From Lysobacteraceae bacterium (GTDB taxonomy: Bacteria; Pseudomonadota; Gammaproteobacteria; Xanthomonadales; Rhodanobacteraceae), in assembly GCA_004143945.1 (NCBI GenBank), contig SEHB01000011.1, positions 20,070 to 84,069 of the forward strand: a DNA stretch of 64,000 bases, given 5' to 3'. The notes under the pieces are model-generated. The model made no database searches. It had not been told where the DNA came from and worked only from the letters and a program-made list of their open reading frames with translations. Shown one piece after another: positions 14,028 through 56,977 of this stretch; position 1 is the stretch's first letter, and each line of letters starts with the position of its first letter. Both the position numbers and the translations under genes were made by a program.

Positions 14028-14681
14028 CTACTGCGTATGGTTGTGCTGCACCGTGGTCTGGCACGCGCCCGCGTTGCAGAAGTAGTCTTCCACCTCGGGA
14101 TCGCTGAGCCGGATGTTGACGTAGTACGTCTGCCCGGGCTGCAGCTTGCACGCGACGCCAGGGAACCCGGGCATGCCCCATACACCCATGCGCTGGCCAA
14201 CGCCGGTCGAGCGCATCTGGCAGAACTGGCCGGATGGATTGAAGTCCCCGCACCGCGGGCTGATCGCCATGTCGGTGGCCGGACCCGGCAGCGTCTCGCC
14301 GTGGGTGAACATGCCCCAGGCCCATGCGGGCATGTCCATCGGCACCTCGAATCGCGCCGCGACGTAACCGTGGCGCGGAAAACTCCAGAACACCGCGAAG
14401 ACATTCATCCACGGAAACGGGACGGTCGCGCCGCCGGCGTGGGCGCGTCCCCAGATGTTCTCGGCCTGCGTGACGTCGACGATGCGACGTCCGATGCCGT
14501 CGTAGCGCCACGACATCATCGTCGACTCGATGCGACCTCGCGGGCAGTCGCCCTGCATGTCGTATCCGTCGAAGTAGATGCCGTTGGCGAGTGGCTGCGT
14601 CTGCGCCTGTGCCGCGCTCGCGAAGGCCACGCCGAGCGAGCCCGTGAACAGGGCGGCTGCGATGCCGAATGTGTTCTTCAC
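14028..14681 (-). CDS. Secreted Cys-containing hypothetical protein with N-terminal NGIYFDGYD tag variant
   Basis: GTG start (alternative 14684) after GGAG; signal peptide ending AQA; 6 Cys in mature domain. Confidence 0.75.
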   Translation of the reverse strand: MKNTFGIAAALFTGSLGVAFASAAQAQTQPLANGIYFDGYDMQGDCPRGRIESTMMSWRYDGIGRRIVDVTQAENIWGRAHAGGATVPFPWMNVFAVFWSFPRHGYVAARFEVPMDMPAWAWGMFTHGETLPGPATDMAISPRCGDFNPSGQFCQMRSTGVGQRMGVWGMPGFPGVACKLQPGQTYYVNIRLSDPEVEDYFCNAGACQTTVQHNHTQ

Positions 14682-14923
14682 CACACGATCTCCCGCGCCG
14701 CGCGAACGGCGTCGTGGTTCCGGCGCCGCAGGGCGCGCAGGGTGGACAGGGGCAACTGGCGACGGGACGCGCTCTGGGGCGCCTTGCCCGGCAACAGAAG
14801 GTTCGACGCATGCATCCGGGCGATCGAAACGTATCGACGGGTCCTTCACGCCGATCGGCCGGCGTCGGATCCTTGCTCGCGGCGGCCGCTGCATTCTAGG
14901 CAGCCGCGACGCGTCCCGTGTTA

Positions 14924-15724
14924 TCAAAACGTTGGTCGACCGCCACGAATCGTGTCGTGCGCGAGCAGGCGCTCGACGCGCTCGAGGTCGTCGCGCGTGT
15001 CCACGCCAGCCGGGAATGGCTCGGGCGCGAGGCGCACCGCGATCGCATGCCCGTGCTCGAGTGCACGCAACTGCTCGAGCGCCTCGATGCGCTCGAGCGG
15101 CGTCGGCGACAGCGCCGCGAAGCGACGCAGGAATCCCGCGCGGTACGCGTAGATCCCGATATGCCGGAGGAACGGAACGCCCGCGGGCAGCGTCGCGCGG
15201 TCCCGCGCGAACGCGTCGCGCGGCCACGGCAGCGGCGCGCGGCTGAAGTAGAGCGCGCGGCCGCGCGCGTCGCGCACGAGCTTGACGCAGTTCGGGTCGA
15301 ACAGTTCACGGGCATCGAGCAGTGGCGTCGCGAGCGTCGCCATCGGTGCGTCGTCGTCGGCGAGCGCACGCGCGACTTCGCGGATGCCGCTGGCCGGCGC
15401 GAGGGGTTCGTCGCCCTGGAGGTTCACGACGATCGCGTCGTCGGGCCATTCGAGCAGGGTTGCCGCTTCGGCAAGCCGGTCGCTGCCCGAGGCATGCTCG
15501 GCGCGCGAACGCAGCACGCGCACGCCGCTGCCCGCGAGCGCCGCCTCGATGCGCGCGTCATCGGTCGCGACCACCACGTCCACCGCACCGGCCGCGCGCG
15601 CGCGGCGCGCGACATGCAGGATCATCGGCTCGCCTGCGAGCGGCAGCAACGGCTTGCCCGGCAGCCGGGTGGAGCCGTGGCGCGCGGGGATCGCGACGAT
15701 GAAATCGGGCTGGTCTCGGGGCAT
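14924..15724 (-). CDS. kdsB: 3-deoxy-manno-octulosonate cytidylyltransferase
   Basis: [50 protein letters not shown]. Confidence 0.96.
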
Positions 15725-15851
15725 GGCACTCGCTTCGCGCGAAAACCGCGGCAGCGTACCGGACGGCGCGACCGCGCGACAGGCCGACGCGCGCCCGCTG
15801 AACGCCGCGCGACTGCACGCGCGCGGGAGGTCCGGGACGCTGCATGCGCAA

Positions 15852-15860
15852 TGCTAGAAT
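15852..15860 (+). promoter_or_regulatory. Extended -10 element upstream of DMT transporter
   Basis: TGCTAGAAT, 33 bp before GTG 15893. Confidence 0.5.
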
Positions 15861-15892
15861 GCGGCGCCCCGCGTCCCCTGCCTCGAGCGTCC

Positions 15893-16825
15893 GTGAGTCC
15901 ACCCGCCCCTGCCGCGACCGCTGCGGCCGCGCTGCCCCTGCGCGCGGCCCTGATGATGGTCGCGAGCGCATGCCTGTTCGGGTTCATGGCGATCCTGATC
16001 CGCCATGTATCGGCCTCGCTGCACCCGTTCGAGATCGCGTTCTTCCGCAGCTTCTTCGGCGCGCTCGCGGCCCTGCCGCTGCTGCTGCCGACCGGCCTTC
16101 ATGCCTTGCACACCGACCGGCTCGGCTTCTACGTCGTGCGCTGCGCGATCGGGGCGGTGTCGATGCTCGCGGGCTTCTGGGCGATCGCGCACCTGCCGCT
16201 CGCGCAGGCGATCTCGCTGTCGTATTCGTCCCCCCTGTTCGTGACGATCGGCGCGGTGCTGTTCCTCGGCGAGGTCGTGCGCCTGCGTCGCTGGAGCGCC
16301 GTGATCGCGGGCTTCATCGGCGTGCTCGTGATCGTGCGGCCCGGCACCGATGCATTCACGGCCGCGAGCCTGATCGCGGTATTCGCGGCCGCGCTGAGCG
16401 GCGCGGTGACGATCAGCATCAAGTTCCTGTCGCGTTCGGATCCGGCCAATACGATCGTGCTGCTGACGACGCTGCTGTGGGTGCCGCTGTCGCTGCCGGC
16501 CGCGCTCGCGGTCTGGCAGTGGCCGGCTGCGACGACCTGGCCGTGGCTCGTGCTGATCGGCATGCTGGGCACGGGCGGCCAGTATTTCTGGACGAACGCA
16601 CTGCGACTCGCCGACGCGTCGGTGATCGCGCCGTTCAGTTACCTGCAGCTCGTGATCGTCGCGGTGCTTGCATGGATCGTGTTCGGCGAGCAGCCCGACG
16701 CCTGGACCGCGGCCGGTGCCGCGATCGTGATCGGCGCGAGCCTCTACATCGCGCGACGCGAGGCCGTGCTCGCGCGCCAGCGGCGCGCGGAGGCGATCGC
16801 CGCCAAGGGCGAGCCGCAGATCTGA
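15893..16825 (+). CDS. EamA/DMT family transporter
   Basis: About 10 TM helices, two EamA repeats, FLGEVV..RRW motif. Confidence 0.88.
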   Translation: MSPPAPAATAAAALPLRAALMMVASACLFGFMAILIRHVSASLHPFEIAFFRSFFGALAALPLLLPTGLHALHTDRLGFYVVRCAIGAVSMLAGFWAIAHLPLAQAISLSYSSPLFVTIGAVLFLGEVVRLRRWSAVIAGFIGVLVIVRPGTDAFTAASLIAVFAAALSGAVTISIKFLSRSDPANTIVLLTTLLWVPLSLPAALAVWQWPAATTWPWLVLIGMLGTGGQYFWTNALRLADASVIAPFSYLQLVIVAVLAWIVFGEQPDAWTAAGAAIVIGASLYIARREAVLARQRRAEAIAAKGEPQI

Positions 16826-16867
16826 CGCGGATGCGCGCGGTCGACGCGCGCGCGAGGTTCGCCCGTA

Positions 16868-17587
16868 TCAGGTCCGATCGGCCGCAGCCGACGTCCCTCG
16901 TGCCGGACCACGATGGAACACGATCAACCACATCGCGACCGTCCACGCGACCGCGGCGGTCCATCCGGCGAGGATGTCGGACGGATAGTGCACGCCGAGG
17001 TAGACGCGCGACATCCCGACCAGGACGACGAACACGATGCCGGCTGCGAGCGCGGGCCAGCGCAGCCGCGTGCGCCACGCGAGCAGCACGAGCACGCACG
17101 CCAGCGTCATCGAGCCCATCGCGTGGCCGCTCGGGAAGCTGTAATTGTCCTCGGGCGCGATCGATTCCCACAGCGACGGCCGCTCGCGCCCGAACATCGG
17201 CTTCGCCGCGAGGTTCAGCAGCGCCGAACCGACGATCGCGAGTCCGGCGAACAGGCCCTCGCGCAGGCGCCGCGCGAACCCGAGGCCAAGCACGAGCGCG
17301 ATGTCGACCGGCACCACGCCGAACTGGTAGCCGGCCATCGCGACCGCGACGAAGAACGCATCCAGGCGCGGGCCGTGCACGGCCTGCGCGGCATGCAGCA
17401 GCGGGATGTCGAACGCGAATCCCTCGTCCTCGCGCACTTCGTCGACCAGCATGCCGAAGCCCGCGAGCGGCAGCAGCACGCCGAAGAACACCAGCGCGAC
17501 CGCGATCCAGTGCCGGCGCAGGAACCCGAGGCCGTAGCGCGCTTCCTCGAGCGCGACGCGCGCGAGGCGCGCGAGCTCAATCCGCAT
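16868..17587 (-). CDS. PAP2-family phosphatase (possible lipid or undecaprenyl-phosphate phosphatase)
   Basis: K...R.RP, SFPSGH and [12 protein letters not shown] motifs. Confidence 0.92.
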
Positions 17588-18827
17588 GCAGGCGCCGCCC
17601 GTAGCGCCGCTCGACGTAGTCTTCGATCACGCCGACGAAATCCGACGCGATGTGCTCGCCGCGCAGGGTCATCGCCTTCTCGCCGTCGATGAACACCGGC
17701 GCGGCCGGCGCCTCGCCGGTGCCCGGCAGCGAGATGCCGATGTCGGCGTGTCGCGATTCGCCCGGTCCGTTGACGATGCAGCCCATCACCGCGAGCGTGA
17801 GGTTCTCGACGCCGTCGTACTTGAGGCGCCACTCGGGCATGCGCGCGCGCACGTGTTCCTGCACCGTGTGCGCGAGTTCCTGGAACAGCGTGCTGGTCGT
17901 GCGACCGCAGCCGGGGCACGCCGTGACGAGCGGCGTGAACGCGCGCAGGCCCATCGTCTGCAGCAGTTCCTGCGCGACGATCACCTCGCGCGTGCGCGAT
18001 TCACCCGGCTCGGGCGTCAGCGATATGCGGATCGTGTCGCCGATGCCTTCCTGCAGCAGCACCGCGAGCGCGGCGCTCGATGCGACGATGCCCTTCGAGC
18101 CCATGCCGGCCTCGGTGAGCCCGAGGTGCAGCGCATGGTCGCTGCGCGCGGCGAGGTCGCGATAGACGGCGATGAGCTCCTGCACACCCGAGACCTTGCA
18201 CGAGAGGATGATGCGGTCGCGCGCGAGCCCGAGCGATTCGGCGCGCGCGGCCGATTCGAGCGCCGAGCGGATCAGCGCCTCGCGCGCGACGCGCGACGCG
18301 CTCCAGGGCTGCGGGCGCGCATGGTTCTCGTCCATCAGCGCGGCGACCATCGACTGGTCGAGGGAGCCCCAGTTCGCGCCGATCCGCACCGGCTTGTCGT
18401 GGCGCAGCGCGGTCTCGATGATCGCGGCGAACTGCGTGTCCTTCTTGCGACCGAACCCGACGTTGCCGGGATTGATGCGGTACTTCGCGAGCGCGACCGC
18501 GCACGCCGGCTCGTGCTCGAGCAGGGTGTGGCCGTTGTAGTGGAAGTCGCCCACCAGCGGCACCGCGCAGCCCATCATGTCGAGCCGCTCGCGGATGCGC
18601 GGCACCGCGGCCGCGGCTTCGGTCGTGTTGACCGTGATGCGCACGAGTTCGGAACCCGCGCGCGCGAGTTCGGCCACCTGCTTCGCGGTGCCGACGATGT
18701 CGGCGGTGTCGGTATTGGTCATCGACTGCACGACGACCGGCGCACCCGCGCCGACCGTCACCGCACCGATGCGGACGGCAACGCTGGCGCGACGCGGCAG
18801 CGGCGCGTCGAGGATGGAATCGGACAT
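17577..18827 (-). CDS. ispG: (E)-4-hydroxy-3-methylbut-2-enyl-diphosphate synthase
   Basis: [46 protein letters not shown]. Confidence 0.97.
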
Positions 18828-18919
18828 GTCGGAGCTCGTTCGGGCGCCTGGCGCGGCGCAGACGAAGATTATAGCGGTGGAAGGGTCCGGCCTCGGCCGC
18901 GCTGCCTCCGAGCCTTACC

Positions 18920-19021
18920 TGTGGGAGGGCTTCAGCCCCGAGCCCTTCGCGCGATCGATCGGGACTGAAGTCCCTCCCACACGGCTGCGATCCGCTTGTG
19001 TGGGAGGAGCTTCAGCCCCGA
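18920..19021. repeat. REPIN plus extra REP
   Basis: Forward REP 18920-18941, inverted REP tcgggactgaagtccctcccaca 18959-18981, forward REP 18999-19021. Confidence 0.9.
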
Positions 19022-19091
19022 GCGCCTGGCGCTGCGCGAACACGTCCGAGTTTCCGTGGTAGAACTTGTACACATTCGGGGAGGACCGACC

Positions 19092-20783
19092 ATGCGGACT
19101 TTCGTTTCATCCTGGCTGCTCGCCGCCGCGGCGGGCCTCGCGCCGCTCGCCGCCGGCGCCGCTCCGGCGCACTACCTCGTGCTCGAAATCGGCGAGGATG
19201 CGCTCGCCCATCCGCTGTACTACAGCCGGGTGGAGAGGGCGACGGAAGCGGATCGCGCACCCGCGGTCCTGCCGTCCCGCTCGAGCGACGCGATCGCGTG
19301 GCGCAGCATCGGCCCGCGCGGCGCGGGCGCGCTGAGCACGATCCCGATGCCCCAGGTCCTGCACGCGGAGTTCGCGCGCGACCCCGATGCGGCCACCAGC
19401 GCGATCGATTCGGTCGCGGTGCCGAACACGCAGCGCAGCTTCGTCGTGCGCGCGCCGGTCGTCGACGGTGACGCGATCGAACTGATCCTGCCGTCCGGCG
19501 CGACGCAGCGCATCGACATCGCGGCGATCGCGGCGAATGCAGCGCGGCTGCCGCTCGCTGGATTCGTGCCGGAGGTCGCGGCGCCCGCGATGCGCGGCGG
19601 CAACCCGGGCAACCGGCTCGACATCCTCGTGTTCGGCGACGGCTACACGGCCGGCGAACAGGCACTCTTCGAGGCGCATGCGCAGGCCCTGCGCGAGTCG
19701 ATGTTCGACATCACGCCGTACCGCGAGTACGAGAGCTACGTGAACTGGATGCCCGCGTTCGTGGCGTCCGCGCAGTCGGGTTCGACCCATCCGCCCTACC
19801 AGGCGGGCTGCACGACCAACGCATGCTGCTCGGACACCGCCGCGCAGACCGATCCCCTGGCGGGCCAGGCGCGCACCACGGCATTCCAGTCGCGCTTCTG
19901 CGCATTCCAGATCCATCGCCTTCTCGTCGCGAACAACGGCCTCGTGCTCGCGGCGGCCGCATCGATCCCGGACTGGGACGTGATCCTCGTGTCGGTCAAC
20001 GATCCGATCTACGGCGGCTCGGGCGGAGAAATCGGCGTGATGTCGCAGCATGGCGCGGCGGTCGAAGTCACGATCCACGAGTTCGGCCACACGTTCACCG
20101 GACTCGCCGACGAATACGACAGCCCCTATCCCGGCTATCCGACCTGCAGCGATACCGGCGGTGGACCCGCATGCGAGGCGAACGTCACGAACCAGACACT
20201 CGCGGCCGCGGTGAAGTGGCGCGACCTGTTCTCGCCGGGCATCTCGATCCCGACGCCCCCCGGCACGCCGGGCACCGGACTGTTCGAGGGCGCGCGCTAC
20301 TTCACGACCGGCATGTACCGCCCCGCGAACCAGTGCGAAATGCGCCAGCTCGGCGTCGAGTTCTGCGCGGTCTGCCGCCAGGAATACATCAAGCACCTCT
20401 ACCGCGGCGGCTGGGGCGCGCCGGCGGGCGGCATCGACCCGATCGAACCCGATAGCGAGTCGCCCGCCCCCGGGGTACCGGTCGTGGTCCAAGCCGGCGT
20501 CGACCAGTCCTTCAGCGCAAGCCTGCTGCAGCCGAGCGTCGGCGCGCACGCGGTCGAATGGCGGCTCGATGGCGTGCCGATCGCGGGCGCGAGCCAGGCG
20601 ACCTACGTGTTCAACCAGGCGACCACGACGCCGGCGCTGCACACGCTCGAGCTGCGCGTATCGGATCCGACCTCGCTCGTGATCCCGTCGATGGCGGACG
20701 GACTGCTGGTGTCCTCGCGCAGCTGGACGATCGAGGTCGTCGAAGCCGACGTCATCTTCGCCGACGGCTTCGACGCGCCCTGA
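19092..20783 (+). CDS. Secreted M64-family zinc metallopeptidase with C-terminal DVIFADGFD tag
   Basis: Signal peptide; LDILVFGDGYT, HEFGHTFTGLADEY, GLFEGA.Y..GMYRP...CEM, FCAVC; ends DVIFADGFDAP. Confidence 0.85.
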   Translation: MRTFVSSWLLAAAAGLAPLAAGAAPAHYLVLEIGEDALAHPLYYSRVERATEADRAPAVLPSRSSDAIAWRSIGPRGAGALSTIPMPQVLHAEFARDPDAATSAIDSVAVPNTQRSFVVRAPVVDGDAIELILPSGATQRIDIAAIAANAARLPLAGFVPEVAAPAMRGGNPGNRLDILVFGDGYTAGEQALFEAHAQALRESMFDITPYREYESYVNWMPAFVASAQSGSTHPPYQAGCTTNACCSDTAAQTDPLAGQARTTAFQSRFCAFQIHRLLVANNGLVLAAAASIPDWDVILVSVNDPIYGGSGGEIGVMSQHGAAVEVTIHEFGHTFTGLADEYDSPYPGYPTCSDTGGGPACEANVTNQTLAAAVKWRDLFSPGISIPTPPGTPGTGLFEGARYFTTGMYRPANQCEMRQLGVEFCAVCRQEYIKHLYRGGWGAPAGGIDPIEPDSESPAPGVPVVVQAGVDQSFSASLLQPSVGAHAVEWRLDGVPIAGASQATYVFNQATTTPALHTLELRVSDPTSLVIPSMADGLLVSSRSWTIEVVEADVIFADGFDAP

Positions 20784-20807
20784 CCCGGGCGGACGGCCGC
20801 CGGCGAC

Positions 20808-22493
20808 TCAGCCGGCGGCCTCGAGCTCCGCATGCGGCGCCGCGTCCGGCAACGCGAAGTGCTGGAAGATGCCGGTCGCCTCGACCACGCGCAATCCGAG
20901 CGCACGCGCCGACCGTGCCGGCAGCGGCGGACCGCGCAGGTCGGTGGGGACCGCGAGGTCGACTTCGGTGGTCAGGCGGTCGAGCTCGGTCGCGGTCACG
21001 AGGGCGGCGTAATCGGCGCCCTCCTCGGCCGCGAGCGGCGTCAGCAGCAAGCCGCGCAGCGGCACCGGCGCCTGCTTGCGATCGAGCGCTCGCACGCCGA
21101 CCGGCAGCGCGCGTCGCGCGAGCAGTTCCACGCCGGCGTCGACGCGGCCCTGGTCATCGATGCGGATCCAGCGGATCACGCCGATCATCCATTCGACATC
21201 GCCGTCGCCCGGATCGGGCAGCGCGAGGCCGACGAGTTCGGACACGCGCGCACGCGCCGCCGCGCCACCCTCCCCGCGATCCCAGAGCAGGCGATAACCG
21301 CCGAGGCCCTGGTCGACCACTCGCACGGGCAGGCGCGTCGCGCGCGCGAACTCGCTCGCGCCGGTGCGCCAGCTCGATGCGCGATCGGCTTCGCTGAGGC
21401 TGATCGCCTGTCCGCGCACGCGTTGCATGAACGCATCGAATCCCTCGCCGCCCGCGAGCACATAATGCAGGTCGTGCAGGCCGAGCACGCTGTCGAGCAT
21501 GTAGCCGCCACCGAGGCGCTCGTGGCCACGCGTCGCGCGCGCACCCCAGGCCGACGCGACCTTGCGCAGCAGTGCCGCATCGACCTGCAGCGCGGTACCG
21601 CCACGTTGCGGCACCGGCACGCTCGCAGCGTCCGACTGCATCGAGGCGAGCTGGCGATCGACCAGATCGAGCGCGGGACCGATGTCGAGCGCGAGGCGCA
21701 CCGCGACACCGGCGAGGCGTTCGTCGGGCAGGTAGCCGGGACCCGCGTCCGCGTCGGCGTCGATCGGCACGTCGTGGCCGCCTTGGTTGCCTGCGTGCAG
21801 GCGCGCCAGCGGCGCGACCGCGCGCACCAGCGCGATCAGGTCGCCCTGCTCGCGCTGCGTATGGCGATAGGGATTGGCGAGCGCGAGCAGCAGCGCCTGC
21901 GCGTAGACGCCGCGCGCGTCGTCCCCGTCGATCGCGCGATCGTCGAGGCGCAGCGATGCGGCGAAACGGTAGACGTCGTGCAGCGCGCGCCACGCCCCGA
22001 GCGGCGGCGTGCGATAGATCTGGTAGCCGCCCGCGAGCCAGTCGCTGCCGTGCTGAAGCGCGCGCACCGCGGCCAGCGCGACCTGGCGACCGCGCATGAA
22101 CGGCACCGCGCCGTTCGGCTTGCACAGCTCGGCGAGGGCGATCCGGTATCCGGTCGCGAATTCGCCACGGAACTGCAGCGCGAGTTCGCCGAGCTCGGCC
22201 TTCTGCCGCGGCAGAGGGAAACTCGCACCGACGATCTGGCGATCGGCCGAGGCCAGAAGTTGCGTGGCCGATTCGCGCAACACCTCGAGGCCTTCGAGCC
22301 GCTGCGCGCCGTCGAACGCCTGCGTGTTGAGTGCCTGCAGCGCTTCGAGCAGCTTGCGCAGGGCGACGCCGAAATTCGCCATCGGCAAGGCCTCGAGGAT
22401 CGCGCGCAGCGCGCGCGGATCGGCATTGGCGCCGCGCGCGGCAGCGGCACGTGGCGGCAGGTGTTCGACCAATCGGCCATAGGCTTCGCTCAT
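20808..22493 (-). CDS. FimW-like putative c-di-GMP receptor (degenerate PilZ-type motifs)
   Basis: LALANPY, RGHER (RxxxR) and VVDQGLGGY (DxSxxG-like), W.IGVIRW..GVELL. Confidence 0.6.
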   Translation of the reverse strand: MSEAYGRLVEHLPPRAAAARGANADPRALRAILEALPMANFGVALRKLLEALQALNTQAFDGAQRLEGLEVLRESATQLLASADRQIVGASFPLPRQKAELGELALQFRGEFATGYRIALAELCKPNGAVPFMRGRQVALAAVRALQHGSDWLAGGYQIYRTPPLGAWRALHDVYRFAASLRLDDRAIDGDDARGVYAQALLLALANPYRHTQREQGDLIALVRAVAPLARLHAGNQGGHDVPIDADADAGPGYLPDERLAGVAVRLALDIGPALDLVDRQLASMQSDAASVPVPQRGGTALQVDAALLRKVASAWGARATRGHERLGGGYMLDSVLGLHDLHYVLAGGEGFDAFMQRVRGQAISLSEADRASSWRTGASEFARATRLPVRVVDQGLGGYRLLWDRGEGGAAARARVSELVGLALPDPGDGDVEWMIGVIRWIRIDDQGRVDAGVELLARRALPVGVRALDRKQAPVPLRGLLLTPLAAEEGADYAALVTATELDRLTTEVDLAVPTDLRGPPLPARSARALGLRVVEATGIFQHFALPDAAPHAELEAAG

Positions 22494-22744
22494 CGGATTG
22501 CTCCATCCGGCGCAGGGACGCGCGGACCTCGGAACGGGTGTAGCAAGTTCCGGGCCGGCCCTGGCCGGAGCCTGGCGCGGACCCGCAATGCCCAGCGACT
22601 ACACTGGGCGCCTTCCCTTCCCCAAGCCCGACTACACCCGATGATGTCCCCAATTTCCGCGCGATGCGAGTCCCGTGCCCCCTGTGCGACCGGGCTGCCA
22701 CCCGGCGTTCGCCGCCGCGCGGCCCGCGTGCCGGGGATGGCCAG

Positions 22745-24190: not shown

Positions 24191-24215
24191 CGATGCCGGG
24201 CATGTCCGCACGCGG

Positions 24216-24339
24216 CCGGGACTGAAACACCGAGCACACGGAAGGACAGCGACGCAGGGCGATGCTCGGGAGACGCCCCTGGACACTGTGCGACGGAGGG
24301 CTGCGGCTCGCACGCATCGGAACTGAAGCCCCTCCCGCG
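24216..24339. repeat. Decayed REP cluster
   Basis: ccgggactgaaacaccgagcaca at 24216-24238 and tcggaactgaagcccctcccgcg at 24317-24339. Confidence 0.55.
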
Positions 24340-25828: not shown

Positions 25829-25842
25829 CCCGGAACCCGGTG

Positions 25843-27267: not shown

Positions 27268-27270
27268 ACC

Positions 27271-47018: not shown

Positions 47019-47181
47019 CGTTCCTCCCGCAAGAATGGCGCGAGCCCGTGGGCCTTGTGGGAGGGGCTTCAGCCCCGAGCGCTTCGCCTGATCCATCGGG
47101 ACTGAAGTCCCTCCCACAAGACTCCGACCATCAGCCTCCACAGCGCCGGCTTCGCTGCCATGGGAGGGACCTCAACCCCGA
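47009..47181. repeat. REP cluster (one intact REPIN with degenerate flanking REPs)
   Basis: Inverted REP 47009-47031, forward 47056-47078, inverted 47096-47118, degenerate forward 47159-47181. Confidence 0.88.
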
Positions 47182-47216
47182 GCGCTTCGCGCGAAGCATC
47201 GCCGCTCGGGCGCCGC

Positions 47217-47225
47217 TGGTACAAT
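47217..47225 (+). promoter_or_regulatory. Extended -10 upstream of mfd
   Basis: TGGTACAAT. Confidence 0.55.
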
Positions 47226-47281
47226 CGATGCTTTCGCGCCGCGCATTCGTCAGCCGCGACGCCGACGCCGTTCCGATCCCG

Positions 47282-50200: not shown

Positions 50201-50761
50201 CAGTCGGGCCAGATCGAGGAGATCGGCTTCTCGCTCTACACCGAGATGCTCGACCGCGCGGTGCGCGCGCTCAAGAACGGCAAGGTGCCGGACTTCGACC
50301 TCACGAGCGACCACGAGGCCGAGGTCGAGCTGCACCTGCCCGCGCTGATCCCGGACGACTACCTGCCCGACGTCAACACGCGCCTCACGCTGTACAAGCG
50401 CATCGCGAGCGCGCGCGACGAGGACGCGCTGCGCGAACTGCAGGTCGAGATGATCGACCGCTTCGGGCTGCTGCCGGACCCGGTCAAGAACCTGTTCGCG
50501 GTGACCTCGCTCAAGCTCGCGGCGACGCCGCTCGGCATCCGCAAGCTCGAGGTCGGCGCCAACGGCGGGCGCGTCGTGTTCCGGCCGCAGCCCGCGATCG
50601 AACCGCTGACCGTGATCCGGCTGATCCAGGCGCAGCCGCGCGTGTACGCGCTCGACGGCCAGGACAAGCTGAAGTTCAAGATGCCGCTCGAGGGCGCCAG
50701 CGAGCGCCTGCGCGCGGCCGGCGACCTGCTCGCGAGCCTCGGCGCGCGCCGCGCGGCGTGA
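47282..50761 (+). CDS. mfd: Transcription-repair coupling factor
   Basis: FPDWETLPYD, RGALLDIF, GDVGFGKT, DEEQRFG, TATPIPRT, QLRGRVGR, DLEIRGAG; alternative start 47228. Confidence 0.98.
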   Translation: MTPILPTPPIPTATRRRRGWTAPHGAALALALAETGRRHPGIVVAVAHDTHAAHALETELGVFAGSDLDVLQFPDWETLPYDLFSPHPEIVSQRVAALYRLPALKRGVLVVPVATLMQRLAPRSYITGSGLVLERAQKLDIASEQRRLEASGYRNVPQVAEPGDFAVRGALLDIFPMGSPAPYRIELFDDEIDSIRTFDPETQRSEQKVDSVRLLPAREFPLTEESAKAFRNSLRERFPIDPRRCPLYQDIKEGVTPAGIEYYLPMFFEHTETLFDYLPDDVLFVLGEGTLEAAEAFWNATLARHEQRAHDVERPVLPPVELYLTPQQLRERLNQGLRIDIVARALAADTDATPARKDVADLGTQPAPNLPLARKGEEPAEGLKRFLAAHPGRVLLTVDSAGRREALLEQLAAAQLRPLPVASWQAFAGEEVRFAITVATLDQGFALTRPPLVVLTERELSGERAQQARRRKRAARDPEAVLRDLSELTIGAPIVHVDHGVGRYQGLLKLDVGGSNAEFLAIGYAKGDKLYVPVAQLQLVSRYSGAAPEFAPLHALGGDAWERAKKKAATKVRDVAAELLAIHAQREARRGTAMQVDHDLVAQFAAAFPFEETPDQSTAIEAVIADLAAPRPMDRVICGDVGFGKTEVALRAAFVAATAGRQVALLAPTTLLAQQHFQNFSDRYADWPVRVEVLSRFKSKKEIEDALSKLADGRIDVMIGTHKLLQPDVRFKDLGLVIIDEEQRFGVRQKEALKKLRAEVDLLTLTATPIPRTLNMAMSGLRDLSIIATPPAHRMAIKTFIGQYDSALVREALQRELARGGQAYFLHNDVDTIEKTARELAELMPEARVRHAHGQMPDRELEQIMLDFYRQRFNVLVATTIIESGIDVPSANTIIINRADRFGLAQLHQLRGRVGRSHHRAYAYLLLPPDRQVTADAEKRLEALASLEDLGAGFTLATHDLEIRGAGELLGEEQSGQIEEIGFSLYTEMLDRAVRALKNGKVPDFDLTSDHEAEVELHLPALIPDDYLPDVNTRLTLYKRIASARDEDALRELQVEMIDRFGLLPDPVKNLFAVTSLKLAATPLGIRKLEVGANGGRVVFRPQPAIEPLTVIRLIQAQPRVYALDGQDKLKFKMPLEGASERLRAAGDLLASLGARRAA

Positions 50762-50819
50762 GGCGCCACCTGGCGCGCGACCGCGGCTTGTGCCGCCCCC
50801 CGGCGGCTTGTCGAAAAGC

Positions 50820-50869
50820 TCGCGACTGAAGTCCCTCCCACGAGACCTGGGGACGGGCTTCGGCCCCGA
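50820..50869. repeat. Degenerate REP pair
   Basis: tcgcgactgaagtccctcccac at 50820-50841 and tggggacgggcttcggccccga at 50848-50869. Confidence 0.75.
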
Positions 50870-50955
50870 CGGCATGTCCCTGGTGAGCCGATCCGGCACC
50901 GGACGACGCATGCATCGGTGGGCCGCGACGAACGCGGCGATCGAGGGTGAACCCC

Positions 50956-52374
50956 ATGCATGCCGCACGTTTCGCCGCGCTGTTCGCCGGGCTCGCGCTC
51001 GCGCTGCCTGCACACGCCGACCGCCTGTATGCGACCGGTTTCGAAATCGCCGCGATCGAGCCGCTGTTCCCGCTCGTCGACGGACGCTACGACCTCGGCA
51101 ACGGAGCGGCGGCGGAGCAGCTCGAGTGGATCCTCGCCGAACTCGCGTCCGGCCAAACCACCACGCCCGCGGAGATCGCCGCGCATTTCGACGCGACGTG
51201 GACGGTGCCGGTCGCCGAGACGCAGGCCTTCTTCGCCTCGCTGCGCGTGCAGTTCCCGGATGCCGTGGTGCTCGACGTCGTGACGATGACGCCGGTGCAG
51301 GCTGTCGTCGTCATCGATGACGACGGCAGCGGCCCGCCGTACGGCTACCTCAGCCTGCGCGTGCGCCATGCGGCGCCGCAGGGCATCGTGCAGCTCGGTG
51401 TCTCGAACTTCAACGGCCAGTTGCAATACCCGGCCGACCAGACGCTCGACCTCGCGCAGGCGGTCGCGCGCTTCCATGCGCTGTCCGGCGATCCCGCGCT
51501 GCTGGTCGGCAGGATCACGCCCGACGGCGAGTGCGGCGTGGTCGCCGGCGACGCCGAAGGCGAGCTGCGCGCGACCGCATCGATCTTCAAGACCTGGGTG
51601 CTCGGCGGCGTCGCGCGCGCGGTCGCGCAAGGCCTGCTCGCGGTCGACGACGTGATCCCGCTGGCCGCGTCCGAACTCGCACCGGGTGGCGCGATCAACG
51701 TCGAACCGATCGGCACGCCGTTCACGCTCGACGAGCTCGCGAGGCTCATGATCGGCATCAGCGACAACACCGCGACCGACCTGCTGCACGAGGCGGTCGG
51801 GCGCGAACGCATCGGCCTGTTCATCGATGCGACCGCCGAGGATCCGACGGTGTTGCGACCGCTGCTCGGGATCAGCGAGCAGTTCCACCTGTTCCACTCG
51901 TTCCCGCTCGACGTGTCGCTCGCCTACGTCGAGGGCACCGAGGCCTGGCAGCAGCAGTTCCTCGCGCAGTCGATCGAACCGCTCGGCCCGCTCGTCACCG
52001 GTCCGTACTTCCATGCGAGCCTGCTCACGCGGGGCAGCTGGCGCGCGAGTCCGCTCGATGTCTGTGCCGCGTTCGCGGCATTGCGCCGGCTGCCGCAAGG
52101 CTCCGATGCGATCGCGCTCGCCGACCGCGCGCTCGGCGCATCGGTCGCGCAGCCCGGCGTGCGCGGCGCCTGGGACCGCGCCTGGTACAAGGGCGGCAGC
52201 CTCGCGTCGGCCGCGGGCTTGCACGTGCTCACGCATGCGTGGATGCTCGAGGACCGCGGTGGCGATCCATGGGTGGTCGTCGCGATGTCGAACAGCGACG
52301 GCGGCGGCATCGACGCCTACCAGGTGCAGTCGGTCACCAACCGGATCCTCCAACTCGTGGCGGAGTCGCGCTGA
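50956..52374 (+). CDS. Secreted serine beta-lactamase-like hydrolase (Cpe/LpqF-like) with N-terminal DRLYATGFE tag
   Basis: Signal peptide ending AHA; SIFK (SxxK), SDN and KGG motifs; GAGGG RBS. Confidence 0.8.
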   Translation: MHAARFAALFAGLALALPAHADRLYATGFEIAAIEPLFPLVDGRYDLGNGAAAEQLEWILAELASGQTTTPAEIAAHFDATWTVPVAETQAFFASLRVQFPDAVVLDVVTMTPVQAVVVIDDDGSGPPYGYLSLRVRHAAPQGIVQLGVSNFNGQLQYPADQTLDLAQAVARFHALSGDPALLVGRITPDGECGVVAGDAEGELRATASIFKTWVLGGVARAVAQGLLAVDDVIPLAASELAPGGAINVEPIGTPFTLDELARLMIGISDNTATDLLHEAVGRERIGLFIDATAEDPTVLRPLLGISEQFHLFHSFPLDVSLAYVEGTEAWQQQFLAQSIEPLGPLVTGPYFHASLLTRGSWRASPLDVCAAFAALRRLPQGSDAIALADRALGASVAQPGVRGAWDRAWYKGGSLASAAGLHVLTHAWMLEDRGGDPWVVVAMSNSDGGGIDAYQVQSVTNRILQLVAESR

Positions 52375-52400
52375 GGCGCGCGGGCCTGCGACAATGGGCG

Positions 52401-53303
52401 ATGCCCACGCCTCCCGCCACGCCCGTTTCCAACGACTTCCTGCACCGCTTCCACCTCGAGCGCGCCGGCGTGCGCGGCGCACTCGTGCGCCTCGAACACG
52501 GGTGGCGACGCATCCTCGAGAACGGCGCGTACGCCGCGCCCCTCGCTTCGCTGCTCGGCGAAACCGTCGCGGCGAGCGCGCTGTTCACGAGCACGATCAA
52601 GTTCGAGGGTCGCCTGTCGATCCACCTGCGCGACAGCGGCGCGCTGCGCCTGCTGTTCGCCGACTGCACGCATGACGGCCACGTGCGCGGGATCGTGCGC
52701 TGGGACGGCATGCCGCCGCAGGCCGCGGTGCAGCTCGATCCGGCCGCGCGCCTCGCGATCACGATCGAAAACACCACCACCGACTCGCGCTACCAGGGCC
52801 TGGTGCCCGTGCAGGGCACGACGCTCGCGCAGGCGTTCGAAGGCTACTTCGAGCGCTCCGAACAGTTGCCGACGCGGATCATGCTCGCGAGCCACGCCAA
52901 CCGCTGCGGCGGCATCCTGCTGCAGCAGATCGCCGGCGCGGGCGGCACCGCGAGCGGCGATGCCGACGGCTGGAACCGCGTGGGCCACCTGCTCGCGACG
53001 CTCGATGATGCCGAACTGCTCGGCCTGCCACCCGAGCAGGTGCTGCTGCGCCTGTTCCACGAGGAAGGCGTGCGCCTGCAACCGGCGCAGCCGCTCGCGT
53101 TCGGATGCACCTGCTCGCGCGCGCGCGTCGCCGACATGCTGCGCTCGCTCGGCCGTGCCGAAAGCGATTCAGTGCTCGCCGAACAAGGCTCGGTGGACGT
53201 CACCTGCGAGTTCTGCAACCGCCGCTACGTGTTCGACGAGGCCGACATCGCGGAGGTGTTCGCCGACCATCCGCCCGAAGCCGACGGCTCGACGCGCCAC
53301 TGA
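52401..53303 (+). CDS. hslO: Hsp33 redox-regulated chaperone
   Basis: VRGALVRL, YQGLVP, YFERSEQLPT, CTCS...CEFC Zn motif. Confidence 0.95.
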   Translation: MPTPPATPVSNDFLHRFHLERAGVRGALVRLEHGWRRILENGAYAAPLASLLGETVAASALFTSTIKFEGRLSIHLRDSGALRLLFADCTHDGHVRGIVRWDGMPPQAAVQLDPAARLAITIENTTTDSRYQGLVPVQGTTLAQAFEGYFERSEQLPTRIMLASHANRCGGILLQQIAGAGGTASGDADGWNRVGHLLATLDDAELLGLPPEQVLLRLFHEEGVRLQPAQPLAFGCTCSRARVADMLRSLGRAESDSVLAEQGSVDVTCEFCNRRYVFDEADIAEVFADHPPEADGSTRH

Positions 53304-53349
53304 CGTCGCGCGCGCTGCCCTTCGGCGCAGCATGCGTGTGCGGCTCGCT

Positions 53350-54045
53350 TCAGCGCGGGCCCGCGGAATCCTCGACCCGGCGCCGCAGCTCGGCCAGCTC
53401 CGCGCGCAGTTCGCGCAGGTCGGCCTCGAGCCCGTCGATGCGCTCGTGCAGGTCGGCGCGCGCGGGCGAGTCGCTGCGCGCGGACGCGCTGGGCGCCGCC
53501 GCGAAGGCTTCGACATCCACCTCGCCACACAGGAGGTGCATGTAGCGGTCCTCGCGCTGTCCCGCGGCGCGCCCGATGCACGCGACCAGCGGCGGTTCGC
53601 GCGCGACGAGTCGATCGAGCGTGTCGCGGACATCGTCCTGCCCCGGGAACGCGCCGATGCGCTCGGTGCGCGTGAGCAGTTCGGCGATCGTCTGCGGACC
53701 TCGCAGCAGCATCACGCAGAGCACCGCGCGCTGGCGCGCCGTGGTGCCATAGGCCGCGTCGAAGCGATGCTCGTAGCGCAGTGCGCGCTGCGACACCGGT
53801 GCGACGCGCACGAGCCCCCTGCCCTCCATCGCGCGCAACGCATGTGCGACGGCGCCCGGTTCAAGCTGCATCAGGGGCTCGCGGCTGGTCTTCTGGTTGC
53901 ACGCGGCGACGATCGCGTTTTCAGTCAGCGGATAGGCTTCCGGCGTGACCGCGGCCTTCTCGACGAGGCACCCGAGGATGCGCGCCTCGATCGGGTCGAG
54001 CGGCGGCCATGCGGCGACAGGGGGCACATCGGTTTCGGGCAGCAC
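53350..54045 (-). CDS. YceH / DUF480 family protein
   Basis: EARILGCLVEK..TPEAYPLT.N...ACNQKTSREP, LLRGPQT, GQREDRYMHLL; GTG start after GGAGAG. Confidence 0.9.
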   Translation of the reverse strand: MLPETDVPPVAAWPPLDPIEARILGCLVEKAAVTPEAYPLTENAIVAACNQKTSREPLMQLEPGAVAHALRAMEGRGLVRVAPVSQRALRYEHRFDAAYGTTARQRAVLCVMLLRGPQTIAELLTRTERIGAFPGQDDVRDTLDRLVAREPPLVACIGRAAGQREDRYMHLLCGEVDVEAFAAAPSASARSDSPARADLHERIDGLEADLRELRAELAELRRRVEDSAGPR

Positions 54046-54191
54046 GTCGGCTCTCCTGCAGCGGAAAGGACGCGAGTTTACCTGTCCACTGGCTCGCGTC
54101 GCGGTCCGCAACGCGCCGGGTCATCGCGCGAAAGACCGCCGGCGGAGCTGAGCGCGGCCAGCCCGCGCGCCCGTCGCACGCTTGCGATCGA

Positions 54192-54899
54192 TCAGTGGGC
54201 CGGTGCGGGATCGAAGCCGTCGGCGAAGATGACGTCGCTGCCCGCGCCGCGCGTGATGCGCAGGTTGTCCATGCGCGCATCGAAGATCGTGAAGCCGTAG
54301 AACATGCCCGGCTCGAATGTCGTGAAGGCGAGTTCGTCGACATTCGCCATCACGTCCGCGAACGTCACGCCATCGGGCAGCATCGGCTCGAACGTCACCG
54401 GGTCTTCCGCCCCGTAGCCGCCCCAGCCTGCAGGCATGTCCGTCGACGAAGGATCGAAACTCACGCTGTAGGCATGCCATTCCGGATCGGCCTGGATCGT
54501 TCCGAGCACGACCCACACCGACGACCACGGATACCCGTCCTGCCCGAGCGCACGGCTGCGGAACTCGACGACGACATTGCGCGAGACCTCGTTGCCGAGG
54601 AACGTGATCGAGTCCGCCTTCGCATCGAGGCCGACCGTCACCGTGTCGCTGCCCGTCATGTCGCCCACGAAAGCGGCATTGGAATCATTGCGCAATTCGA
54701 TCCCGAACGTCTCGAGCAGGAAGCGCATGTTCGCGCCCGGATGGCCGCCTTCGGTCTCGAGCAACGCATTGCCGTTCCAGCCTTCTTCGCCCGCGTCGAA
54801 CGTGGTCACCGTCTCCTGCGCGACGAGCGGAGCCGCGAACAGGCAGGTGGCCAATGCGATCGCGATCTTCGGCACGTGCTGGAACAGGTTCGTCTGCAT
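54192..54899 (-). CDS. Secreted beta-rich protein with C-terminal DVIFADGFD tag
   Basis: Signal peptide ending LVA; TTFD.G.EGW start and DNLRIT end suggest a lectin or laminin-B-like beta-sandwich; GGAGA RBS. Confidence 0.8.
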   Translation of the reverse strand: MQTNLFQHVPKIAIALATCLFAAPLVAQETVTTFDAGEEGWNGNALLETEGGHPGANMRFLLETFGIELRNDSNAAFVGDMTGSDTVTVGLDAKADSITFLGNEVSRNVVVEFRSRALGQDGYPWSSVWVVLGTIQADPEWHAYSVSFDPSSTDMPAGWGGYGAEDPVTFEPMLPDGVTFADVMANVDELAFTTFEPGMFYGFTIFDARMDNLRITRGAGSDVIFADGFDPAPAH

Positions 54900-55012
54900 G
54901 GGTGATTCTCCGTGGCGGGATGAGGCAAGGACGATGGTCGACGGGGCTGAGTCGCAGCCGGTCCGCACGCATGCGACGCGGCGCACGCGGGATGCGCCGC
55001 GCCGCGCGCGCG

Positions 55013-56977
55013 TCAGTCGAAGCCGTCGGCGAAGATCGCGTCGCCACGCGCAGCCTCGAACACGAAGGTACCCGCTTCCCCCGCGAATGCGAACACGCGA
55101 CCGTCGGGCGCGAGCGCGACCTTGCGCACCGGATAGCCGATCGGGTGGCGCGCGACCTGGACCGGCGTCGCGGGTTCGGAGATGTCGATCTCGTCGACGC
55201 CGTACTCGTGGCCGACGTAGGCCGTGGTGCCGGACACGACGACCGAATGCGCGACGTTGTACTCCGGCAGCTGCGCGCTGCCGGCGAGCACGTGGCTGCC
55301 GAGCACGAGCGGCTGCGCCTTGTCCGTCACGTCGACGATGCGCAGCTCGCTCGCGAACGTCTCGTTGGACGCGCACGCGATGTAGACGGTGTTGCCGTCC
55401 GCCGACGCGTCGATGCCCATCGCGTACGCGCAACCGGTGTCCTGGCCGAGCAGCGCCGGCATCGCGGGATTCGATACATCGACGACGCGCAGTCCGCCGT
55501 CGCCGAAGTCGGCGCCGTCGGCGAGGAACGCATGGCTGCCGCGCACGGCGAGGTCGTAGGTCTGGCTCGTCGCGAGCGAACCGAGTTCCAGCGGCTGCGC
55601 CGGATCGGCCACGTCGAGGATCCGGAAGTACCCGCCATTGGTCGTGCTCGAGGCGTACACGCGGTCACCATGTGCCTCGATCGCGCTGGCGTACGGGAAC
55701 TCGAAGCGCCCGAGCTCGACCGGCGCCGCAGGATCGGCGACGTCGACGACGAGCACGCCGTATCCCCAGGCGGCGAGGTAGGCGCGGCCGCCGTCGAGCG
55801 AGATGTCTTCCATGTCGCGCGCCTGCAGGTAGGGCGGCAGGTCTGCGTCGAAGCGGCCGATCGACTGCAGCGAGGCCGAGTCGAGCACGCCGAGGCCGTA
55901 GGCTTCCTGCGCCAGGTAGACGTGGCTCGCATCGAACGCGGCGGCATGCGCGTTGACGCCGAACGGCAGCGTGAAACCCGCGGCGAGCACCGGATGCGGT
56001 GGATCGGCGACGTCGAGCAGCATCCCGCGATCGGCATGCGTGAGGACGAGCGGTCCGAACGGCGTGTCGGCGGCCTGGTCGGGCGCGAACGCGTCCATCG
56101 CGACCGTGCGCAGCAATGCAGGTTGCGTCGGGTCGTTGAAATCCCAGACCTGGATGCCAGACGCGCCGACGAGATAGAGCATGTCGCCGCGCAGGATCGC
56201 GTGCGTGGCCATGTCGATCGAGGTGCCGAACACCTGGCTGATGTTGGCGGGATCGTGCAGGTCGTGCACCTGCAGTTCGAGGCCGACCCCGATCGCGTAG
56301 CCGTCGACGAGCACCGCGCGCAGCAGCACGTTGCCGTCGAGCGAGGTGCTGCCGGCCAGCACCGGCGCGGCCGGGTCGCCGATGTCGACGACGTTGACGA
56401 TGCGACCGCCGATCCAGCTGTTGCCGGTGGTCAGCAGCTGGCCACCGTGCACGCCCATCGCATCGAACTCGCCGACGCCGGCGACCGTACCGATCGCGAC
56501 CGGAGCCACCGGATCGGCGGCATCGAGCACGATCAGCCCGTTCTCCGCATCGCCGACGTAGAGATACTGGCCAGCCGCCGCGAGGCCGTTCGGCCGCTTG
56601 AACTCCGACGCGACGTAATCGTCGATCTCGGCCACCGGCTCGGGATCGGCGGGGTCGGCGAGCGAGTACACCGTGATGCCGCCCTCGCCCGACGGGTTGT
56701 TCCATGCCGCATACAGATGATCGCCGAGCGTCGCGAGCGCGCGCACGACGCCGCCCGCGGGGGCGCTGCGGTCGACGACCACGGGCGCGCCGGGATCGGC
56801 GAAGCTCCAGACGGTCAACGTCGCGCCGGTGCCGACATACAGGTAGTCGCCATGCACGGCCGGCGGCGACAGCGCGCCGCCCCCGGCATCGACGGGTGTG
56901 AGGTCCTGCGCATGCGCGGCGCAGGCGAACGACAGCAGGCACGGCAACAGCAGGCCGCGGGCACTCGCAAAGGTCAT
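55013..56977 (-). CDS. Secreted LVIVD-repeat beta-propeller protein with C-terminal DAIFADGFD tag
   Basis: Signal peptide ending AHA; more than 10 repeats of [YL]AY.A...GL.VVDVSDPA.P; GAGGA RBS. Confidence 0.85.
   Translation of the reverse strand: MTFASARGLLLPCLLSFACAAHAQDLTPVDAGGGALSPPAVHGDYLYVGTGATLTVWSFADPGAPVVVDRSAPAGGVVRALATLGDHLYAAWNNPSGEGGITVYSLADPADPEPVAEIDDYVASEFKRPNGLAAAGQYLYVGDAENGLIVLDAADPVAPVAIGTVAGVGEFDAMGVHGGQLLTTGNSWIGGRIVNVVDIGDPAAPVLAGSTSLDGNVLLRAVLVDGYAIGVGLELQVHDLHDPANISQVFGTSIDMATHAILRGDMLYLVGASGIQVWDFNDPTQPALLRTVAMDAFAPDQAADTPFGPLVLTHADRGMLLDVADPPHPVLAAGFTLPFGVNAHAAAFDASHVYLAQEAYGLGVLDSASLQSIGRFDADLPPYLQARDMEDISLDGGRAYLAAWGYGVLVVDVADPAAPVELGRFEFPYASAIEAHGDRVYASSTTNGGYFRILDVADPAQPLELGSLATSQTYDLAVRGSHAFLADGADFGDGGLRVVDVSNPAMPALLGQDTGCAYAMGIDASADGNTVYIACASNETFASELRIVDVTDKAQPLVLGSHVLAGSAQLPEYNVAHSVVVSGTTAYVGHEYGVDEIDISEPATPVQVARHPIGYPVRKVALAPDGRVFAFAGEAGTFVFEAARGDAIFADGFD

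Follow-up and report, generated by a model that had tools for sequence, protein, structure and literature searches.

A nine-residue terminal peptide shared by unrelated exported proteins of Lysobacterales: probably a new sorting or docking tag

Known terminal signals and their comparison with the tag

In the tripartite sorting signals (PEP-CTERM/exosortase, IPTL-CTERM, GlyGly-CTERM/rhombosortase, MYXO-CTERM/myxosortase and LPXTG/sortase), a short signature in the C-terminal region is shared by many unrelated signal-peptide proteins of one genome, and in other lineages the homologues have another signal or none. Here we describe a nine-residue peptide (hereafter, the tag) that resembles these signals in each of these respects and was found in a stretch of 64,000 nucleotides of contig SEHB01000011.1 from a Lysobacteraceae bacterium (hereafter, the window; G+C content 70%, with the closest protein relatives in Dokdonella and other Lysobacterales). 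Five unrelated signal-peptide proteins of the window carry the common peptide at one end; this observation is real and statistically secure, and sequence comparisons suggest that the peptide is probably a new sorting or docking tag. Some cargo families, namely choice-of-anchor proteins and M36 peptidases, are also common to the tag and the tripartite signals. The tag differs from these signals, however, in that it has neither a transmembrane segment nor an Arg cluster and is also found at the mature N-terminus or between domains. Having no transmembrane segment, it cannot serve to hold proteins within the inner membrane, where an intramembrane sorting protease would act on them.

A checklist of eight attributes is available for small C-terminal sorting signals (Haft, bioRxiv 10.1101/2023.06.07.544157). 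When compared with this checklist, the tag is present in multiple copies per genome (attribute 2; five in the window), contains at least three invariant residues (attribute 3), is accompanied by a signal peptide on most carriers, including all five window proteins (attribute 6), sits on unrelated carriers (attribute 7), and has homologues of its carriers without the signal or with a different one (attribute 8). The C-terminal location (attribute 1) holds for most sites, i.e. 100 of the 122 sites selected with a sequence probe and 18 of 21 unselected sites (see below), with a minority located N-terminally or between domains. In contrast, there is no hydrophobic transmembrane segment (attribute 4): what comes after the tag is 0-7 residues or a polar stretch of 12, of the form SGDTSAWSxxVP. 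A basic cluster (attribute 5) is lacking as well, the tails having D/E, P, G or similar as their last residues and no clustered Arg. Because the two attributes that define the mechanism are absent, and because N-terminal and inter-domain copies exist, the tag does not fall in the PEP-CTERM/LPXTG/GlyGly-CTERM class; the initial annotation of the window, made from the sequence alone, was thus correct in describing it as devoid of both a transmembrane helix and a basic tail.

Two further classes of exported proteins invite comparison. In the dockerin-cohesin system, the dockerin (type I, PF00404) is, like the tag, a modular appendage of diverse secreted enzymes, mostly C-terminal yet tolerant of position; the role proposed here for the tag is likewise non-covalent display on a scaffold, and dockerins are found at the same place in jelly-roll homologues of one of the tagged proteins. 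However, the dockerin is a folded Ca-binding module of ~60-70 residues with a duplicated segment, whereas the tag is 9-19 residues long and predicted to be unstructured; there is no sequence similarity between the two, no Pfam match was obtained on the tails, and no cohesin-like partner is known. The C-terminal domain of type IX secretion (T9SS) is also a C-terminal element of many unrelated exoproteins, one that directs their transit through the outer membrane and their surface attachment, and an M36 peptidase family includes T9SS-, rhombosortase- and myxosortase-dependent versions alongside tag-bearing ones. This domain is, by contrast, a folded beta-sandwich of 70-100 residues that is restricted to Bacteroidota-type systems and cleaved by PorU; the length of the tag is incompatible with it, and the T9SS C-terminal domain models of Pfam and NCBIfam did not match the tagged proteins.

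When the window proteins, tag peptides of 24 and 26 residues, and tag-bearing tails were scanned against Pfam (2025) and NCBIfam (June 2026) at E ≤ 10, no model for the tag was found. A 14-column tag profile gave only chance internal matches in PDB (a designed protein and a polyketide synthase), and searches of the literature with the motif strings retrieved nothing relevant, the 'choice-of-anchor' papers making no mention of the tag. The tag is widespread and apparently undescribed, in line with the earlier remark that no function had been described for it.

Tag sites, conservation and predicted structure

Three of the five window tags are located 0-5 residues before the stop codon and two just past the signal peptide. 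The C-terminal tags are DVIFADGFD in a secreted M64-family peptidase (positions 20748-20774, plus strand), followed by AP and the stop codon; DVIFADGFD in a 235-aa jelly-roll protein (54210-54236, minus strand), followed by PAPAH and the stop codon; and DAIFADGFD in an LVIVD-repeat protein (55016-55042, minus strand), with the stop codon immediately after. The N-terminal variants are DRLYATGFE in a serine hydrolase (51019-51045, plus strand), which begins with the first residue past the predicted signal-peptidase site (LPAHA|DRLYATGFE), and NGIYFDGYD in a Cys-rich protein (14559-14585, minus strand), which starts 6 residues past the predicted AQA| site. All five peptides translate as the initial annotation had claimed. 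In the six-frame translation of the 64 kb, the core pattern [ILV][FY]..G[FY][DE] matched 5 times compared to 0.03 matches expected from composition (mean 0.03, maximum 1, in 300 residue shuffles), and the stricter 9-mer D.[ILV][FY].[DNST]G[FY][DE] matched 4 times compared to 0.0002 expected. The core-pattern matches are precisely the five sites first noticed; the scan found none in cytoplasmic proteins or at internal positions of the window, so the asserted restriction to signal-peptide proteins holds.

Comparison of orthologues shows that the tag is maintained. It is present at the end of 100 of the 120 homologues of the LVIVD protein (37-93% identity) and of 75 of the 120 homologues of the 235-aa protein. 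At 50-93% identity, the LVIVD and jelly-roll orthologues give the consensus D(95-98%)-x-[IV]-F(100%)-[ASV]-[DN]-G(92-100%)-F(100%)-[DE](~99%), followed by 0-7 residues, and the linker of 4-6 residues ahead of the tag varies freely, a pattern suggestive of purifying selection that acts on the tag and spares the linker. The N-terminal variants are genuine versions of the motif as well: in 103 of 120 serine-hydrolase orthologues, L-[FY]-x-D-[GS]-F-[DE] is found with its start 1-3 residues past the signal peptide, and for the Cys-rich family, with 190 library representatives at E ≤ 0.001, the motif follows the signal peptide in 38 of the best 150 representatives and is C-terminal in 1. Both the N-terminal copies of the window are therefore kept in orthologues, and the claim that the tag can occupy either terminus is sustained.

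These data also bear on the possibility that the tag is a product of chance or a DNA-level artefact, brought about by biased codon use, by a DNA repeat or by frameshifts in genes. The three C-terminal copies do share an identical 20-mer, as expected from the strong codon bias at 70% G+C. However, the excess of matches in the window over the expectation, the conservative character of the orthologue substitutions at the protein level (I/V/L, D/N, D/E), the N-terminal copies, which differ in residues and therefore in DNA, and the presence of the tag in several phyla all point the other way. The window statistics together with protein-level conservation rule out this explanation, to which we assign a negligible probability.

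The distribution of the tag beyond this genome was traced using as the probe the 20-mer that is identical in the three C-terminal window copies, scanned against one genome per species. Among the matches listed, the probe hit more than 119 loci, with several loci within single assemblies (e.g. L006, L037, L071 and L088 in Dokdonella ginsengisoli). In-frame translation of 122 probe sites gave 41 short C-terminal tags, 59 long C-terminal tails, 17 internal sites, 4 near-start sites (the open reading frame (ORF) begins close upstream) and 1 unclassed site, where the ORF extends past the locus edge; the 100 sites counted above as C-terminal lie within 25 residues of the stop codon. The short tags consist of IFADGF[DE] and up to 8 residues; 31 come from Lysobacterales, 1 from Gemmatimonadales, and most of the rest from other Gammaproteobacteria and unclassified Pseudomonadota, which accords with the mention, in the initial annotation, of similar tails in Dokdonella-like genomes. 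The long tails have the 19-residue form IFADGFE-SGDTSAWSxxVP-stop and belong to Acidobacteriota (Thermoanaerobaculia and Holophagae), Myxococcota and related lineages; exactly 12 residues follow GFE in 36 of the 59, and among these 36, the Trp is invariant and Pro is the last residue in 28. The tag is thus distributed more widely than Xanthomonadales, and the short form is the Lysobacterales/Gammaproteobacteria version of the longer Acidobacteriota/Myxococcota tail. Three of the near-start sites are true N-terminal sites following a signal peptide and one is a chance match in a junk frame (L042); altogether, about three probe sites (L019, L036 and L042) are likely to be due to chance. The five matches in Chloroflexota and Actinomycetes are all internal: three start a jelly-roll domain, one precedes a related domain of ~190 aa, and L019 is chance-like. 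In L021, a locus of a Thermoanaerobaculia metagenome-assembled genome (MAG), the long-form tail (IFADGFESNDTDEWSATVP) continues in frame into an apparent gene for a response-regulator receiver and sigma-54 activator, which reflects either a lost stop codon or an assembly error.

An unbiased check was provided by motif matches in the probe loci that had not been used for selection, within ~235,000 residues of coding-like ORFs. Of the 21 such matches, 18 are at most 18 residues from the stop codon, 3 are just past a signal peptide, and none are elsewhere. By a crude signal-peptide rule, 51 of 74 tagged ORFs scored positive; of the untagged ORFs, 113 of 357 did. Among the tagged ORFs that scored negative, many show a signal peptide by eye.

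AlphaFold2 (AF2) models were built with orthologue alignments for the LVIVD propeller and the 235-aa protein. In the LVIVD model (mean pLDDT 93, pTM 0.90), the tag residues 646-654 are ill-defined (pLDDT <50), and in the jelly-roll model (mean pLDDT 90.6), the tail 219-236 is coil (pLDDT ~58); Foldseek searches with the latter model retrieved generic CBM30/22/4/11 and MAM jelly rolls. In these two predicted structures, the tag does not pack onto its own domain, and on the same models, a role as a structural strand of its own LVIVD or jelly-roll protein was rejected. As a terminal peptide that is conserved and predicted to be unstructured, the tag therefore resembles a linear motif recognised by another protein.

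Interchangeable anchors and the proposed function

The strongest functional clue is the presence of anchor modules at the position of the tag in homologues. In the family of the 235-aa jelly-roll protein (homologues P0121-P0240), one conserved core ending in ...FD.R.DN..I.R is followed, after the last strand, by one of three alternative endings, i.e. the tag (in Lysobacterales), a type I dockerin, or, in Planctomycetota and others, a PEP-CTERM/VPLPA-CTERM-like tail that combines a hydrophobic segment with RRRR. Judged by its sequences, this family is sizeable, lacks a Pfam or NCBIfam model and seems to behave as a choice-of-anchor family. One member, P0186 (from a Rhodanobacter denitrificans MAG), is labelled 'PEP-CTERM sorting domain-containing' but ends in ...VARVADPIFADGFETD, without a hydrophobic segment or Arg cluster; its name was probably transferred from PEP-CTERM-bearing homologues.

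At the tag position of the LVIVD homologues, P0039 has an IPTL-CTERM signal, P0117 a PPC domain, and several have nothing, whereas P0118 and P0120 show the arrangement LVIVD-tag-193-aa domain-stop. A polypeptide carries one tag only: the fused homologues have no second copy, and in the window, where the LVIVD and jelly-roll modules are adjacent but separate genes, each has its own signal peptide and one tag. Fusion of LVIVD with a C-terminal domain of ~190 aa was observed in some Lysobacterales (P0118/P0120, L024, L026 and L028), with the tag at the junction; compared with the LVIVD-then-jelly-roll gene pair of the window, it hints at a functional link, the homology of the domains being only conjectural.

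Tagged proteins from other genomes (n = 93) matched 57 Pfam and 50 NCBIfam families. Among these were choice-of-anchor families Q (7), B (3), O (2) and J (2), the NxxGxxAF repeat (2), M36 peptidases of the myxosortase-dependent (6), rhombosortase-dependent (5) and T9SS-dependent (1) kinds, a MYXO-CTERM-anchored family and an ExeM/NucH nuclease, so that the cargo matched here includes families that curators have defined through interchangeable C-terminal anchors. The tag follows propellers, beta-helices, peptidases and other folds, and an alignment of the 93 proteins (mean column identity 8%) is invariant only in the probe-encoded IFADGF, i.e. the residues used for selection.

The best available reading of these observations is that the tag is a terminal sorting or anchoring signal without the tripartite architecture of the known ones. 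More specifically, we tentatively favour, at somewhat less than even probability, non-covalent docking or retention of exported proteins on a shared envelope or surface partner. Under this proposal, a self-contained unstructured tag, D-x-[IVL]-[FY]-x-[DN]-G-F-[DE] with a short variable linker, would be placed on one end of a Sec-exported protein, usually at the C-terminus and sometimes at the mature N-terminus or a domain junction. It would be recognised not by its own protein but by the shared partner, which would keep mutually unrelated exoenzymes and binding proteins non-covalently attached to the cell surface, in a dockerin-like manner; the tag might be added to the partner as a beta-strand or as a tight [DN]-G turn. 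Action through another protein, retention rather than export, and the mode of binding are all what we infer. Having no membrane segment, the tagged proteins should enter the periplasm after cleavage of the signal peptide, and therefore, the tag would have to act there or further out.

Docking is ranked first because of the modules that replace the tag, because the tag is tolerated at either terminus and at domain junctions, and because its Pro-protected ends suggest that it is still present in the mature protein. Occurrence both at the two ends and between domains is characteristic of binding modules and not of cleaved sorting signals. Several points weigh against this proposal. Replacement by anchors would also fit an export signal, or 'no anchor'. 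The signal-peptide statistic is based on a crude rule, and the contrast between tagged and untagged window proteins described below comprises only 10 proteins, with families assigned by our own reading. Clustering of 756 ORFs from 120 loci did not reveal a receptor, a processing enzyme or a conserved dedicated neighbour, and only winged-helix/TPR regulators (with or without a kinase domain) and cargo families recurred; the syntenic neighbourhood of the window consists of one regulator and housekeeping genes. Neither experiments nor structures offer a precedent, the profile search of PDB having given nothing relevant, and there is little room for strand formation in a short tag whose end is a free Asp or Glu. 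The suggestion of a sorting or docking tag in the initial annotation is thus backed by comparative evidence (anchors at the equivalent position, choice-of-anchor cargo, and lack of structure in AF2 models), but the neighbourhood clustering gave no partner to go with it.

Instead of a retention handle, the tag could be an export signal, i.e. a linear element by which folded proteins in the periplasm are selected for passage through the outer membrane, by type II secretion (T2SS; for example, through the GspC PDZ domain) or by an Omp85/POTRA-type translocon through beta-augmentation. In the window, where about half of the signal-peptide proteins are tagged, the five tagged ones are exoprotein types, whereas the five untagged ones (DUF4142, SnoaL-like, Slp, PQQ dehydrogenase and Cu/Zn SOD) are of periplasmic or lipoprotein type. 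Furthermore, the terminal, tail-only form is found mainly in lineages with an outer membrane, the five Chloroflexota and Actinomycetes matches all being internal; there is a single tag per polypeptide; the tag is exposed and unstructured in the AF2 models; and the T9SS C-terminal domain and GlyGly-CTERM/T2SS cargo exemplify C-terminal elements that couple to outer-membrane transit. However, a linear T2SS signal is not known from any organism, the modules found in place of the tag (dockerin, PEP-CTERM and IPTL-CTERM) are anchoring devices rather than outer-membrane export signals, and nothing in the present data links the tag to any secretion gene. We consider this possibility to be the less likely one, albeit with an appreciable chance of being correct. 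If true, it would bear on the long-standing question of substrate recognition in type II secretion.

The residues that follow the tag are compatible with yet another explanation, which dispenses with a receptor, namely that the tag is the site of a processing protease or an end-cap that shields a floppy terminus from exopeptidases. The tag is found on whichever terminus is free, it is often followed by Pro-rich residues (GFDP, PAPAH, and the terminal Pro of the twelve-residue tails), which suggests end protection, and [DN]-G is a strong former of tight turns. A function in maturation or protection would nevertheless leave unexplained the near-invariance of five positions across phyla, the inter-domain copies, and the anchoring modules at the equivalent place in homologues, and it appears improbable.

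Whatever the mechanism, exoproteins of Lysobacterales, Acidobacteriota and Myxococcota bear the tag or its long form, and the carriers are abundant soil and wastewater bacteria whose secreted repertoire is largely uncharacterised. A nine-residue handle that has no membrane segment and can be placed at either end would add a new class of sorting or docking signal to those already described, namely PEP-CTERM, LPXTG, the T9SS C-terminal domain and dockerins. In practice, it could serve as a simple predictor of surface and extracellular proteins in tag-bearing genomes, as a means of mending annotation errors, such as the PEP-CTERM label of the tagged protein mentioned above, and as a small candidate tag for surface display.

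Relation to a jelly-roll domain

In proteins of Chloroflexota and Actinomycetes and in some of Acidobacteriota, a domain of ~190 residues comes after the motif, with the pattern IFADGFESGxLxxWS...GxxLxV...YRARFxFD...RLG...FDxFxSxR. This domain gave weak matches only (Polysacc_lyase, CBM_4_9, NTTRR-F1 and the first strands of a CBM22 structure), and a PDB search with a 45-residue long-form query retrieved only the first strands of CBM22 (PDB 4xup, E = 1.1). When a hidden Markov model (HMM) of the domain was used, the long tails aligned to its positions 2-22 with 15-24 bits, and accordingly, the tag can be viewed as the start of a jelly roll without the rest: tail-only proteins contain positions 2-22 and lack the remaining ~170 residues, the Lysobacterales form corresponds to the first 7-9 residues, and a complete jelly-roll domain after the motif is found only in the internal class. 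In sequence, the tag thus matches the first strand (short form) or the first hairpin (long form) of a ConA/CBM-type jelly roll. The pattern hydrophobic-F-x-D-G-F-E-x-G-...-W is shared with the first strands of CBM4_9, CBM22 and ConA-like domains, whereas the complete jelly roll of ~130-200 residues that characterises CBM4_9 and ConA-like domains is not present in the tail-only proteins.

This relationship raises the possibility that the tag is a vestige, i.e. a jelly-roll first strand left behind by domain loss, or a structural strand packed on the neighbouring domain, in either case without a partner. The HMM alignment of the long tails, the weak matches to the first strands of CBM_4_9, Polysacc_lyase and CBM22, and some Dokdonella homologues in which a 193-aa domain accompanies the tag are all consistent with such an origin. 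A remnant would decay, however, yet in more than 170 orthologues no other part of the tail is as conserved as the tag; moreover, the long form is of fixed length in 36 of 59 cases, the tag follows many different folds, AF2 does not pack it on the preceding domain, and there is no hidden downstream domain in the window. We regard a vestigial strand as very improbable.

A more elaborate variant is that the tag is a detached first strand or hairpin that plugs into 'headless' jelly-roll acceptors on the surface by donor-strand complementation. As in chaperone-usher systems, a short terminal peptide would complete the beta-sandwich of another protein, and the long tag does match jelly-roll first strands; there is, however, no homology, and the acceptor would be a jelly roll instead of the Ig fold of pili, in which an N-terminal extension enters an incomplete Ig domain. 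A candidate for such a pair was detected by the domain HMM search in a single case, locus L101. On its minus strand, an S8 peptidase (subtilase) ORF (2029-3960) ends in ...IFADGFESGNTSAWTE-stop, and directly downstream, an ORF at ~1146-2078 encodes a signal-peptide protein whose jelly roll begins at the position of the third strand and therefore lacks precisely the piece that the tail of the neighbouring peptidase would supply. The two are a possible donor/acceptor pair, although the presence of a non-canonical tail beside a gene for the rest of the domain would also suit the DNA-level artefact considered above. No relatives of the headless protein were found in a single-protein metagenome scan, and no headless acceptor was found in the window. 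On balance, detached strands as donors seem about as doubtful as vestigial ones; if this scheme were correct, outer-membrane-bearing soil bacteria would display a large interchangeable set of exoenzymes, cellulosome-like, via a handle of 9-19 residues.

In L014, a locus of a Chloroflexota MAG, the two motif-containing ORFs (1986 and 5289) are tandem paralogues with different C-terminal regions, in which a Pro/Thr-rich linker, an IFADGFESG-type jelly roll and an RHS/YD-like core end (...YDYRARFYDPLLGRFIQPDS...) are arranged in what appears, by sequence, to be the layout of polymorphic toxins.

Tagged genes of the window and their neighbours

The M64-family metallopeptidase (563 aa, with a signal peptide) is encoded at positions 19092-20783 on the plus strand (Pfam Peptidase_M64, E = 2.9e-36) and ends in ...EADVIFADGFDAP-stop. 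Directly downstream of it, on the opposite strand, is a well-scoring ORF of 561 aa (20808-22493, minus strand) that matches no Pfam family. The secreted LVIVD-repeat beta-propeller (654 aa; 55013-56977, minus strand; Pfam LVIVD, E = 3.1e-36, and a weak NCBIfam choice_anch_B match) ends in ...RGDAIFADGFD-stop, and the gene of the secreted CBM/MAM-like jelly-roll protein lies directly downstream of it on the same strand. For the latter, called a beta-sandwich protein in the initial annotation, the gene is to be corrected to 54192-54899, encoding 235 aa and ending in ...GSDVIFADGFDPAPAH-stop; library scans assigned the protein to no Pfam or NCBIfam family. The secreted serine hydrolase (472 aa; 50956-52374, plus strand) matches Pfam Beta-lactamase2 (PF13354, Beta-lactamase enzyme family; E = 7.8e-16) and, below threshold, NCBIfam class A beta-lactamases. 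The secreted Cys-rich protein (~218 aa; 14028-14684, minus strand), with the mature start AQA|QTQPLANGIYFDGYD, belongs to no known family by Pfam and NCBIfam scans. A hidden downstream domain or a frameshift after the C-terminal tags was considered and rejected, the next genes being on the other strand or having their own start and signal peptide.

The neighbourhood of the LVIVD gene, which is syntenic in a contig of 93% identity, comprises a winged-helix/TPR regulator, DUF480, Hsp33, the hydrolase and Mfd. The regulator, a large winged-helix (Trans_reg_C) and TPR protein, is encoded just upstream of the LVIVD gene (57174-60311, minus strand). Such regulators adjoin the tagged gene on the same strand in ~14 of 120 loci (L120, L025, L026, L028, L048, L052, L056, L017, L035, L047 and L063 among them), and the Acidobacteriota versions have, in addition, a Ser/Thr kinase domain. 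This adjacency may reflect regulatory coupling to the tagged exoproteins or merely the very large size of a paralogous family. A PMT/ArnT-like glycosyltransferase (PMT_2) is also found near the LVIVD cluster (61115-62848, minus strand, and 60401-61060, plus strand); in the syntenic contig L120, the PMT gene adjoins a YrbL-PhoP_reg gene, and a role in lipid A or envelope modification is more likely for it than a role connected with the tag.

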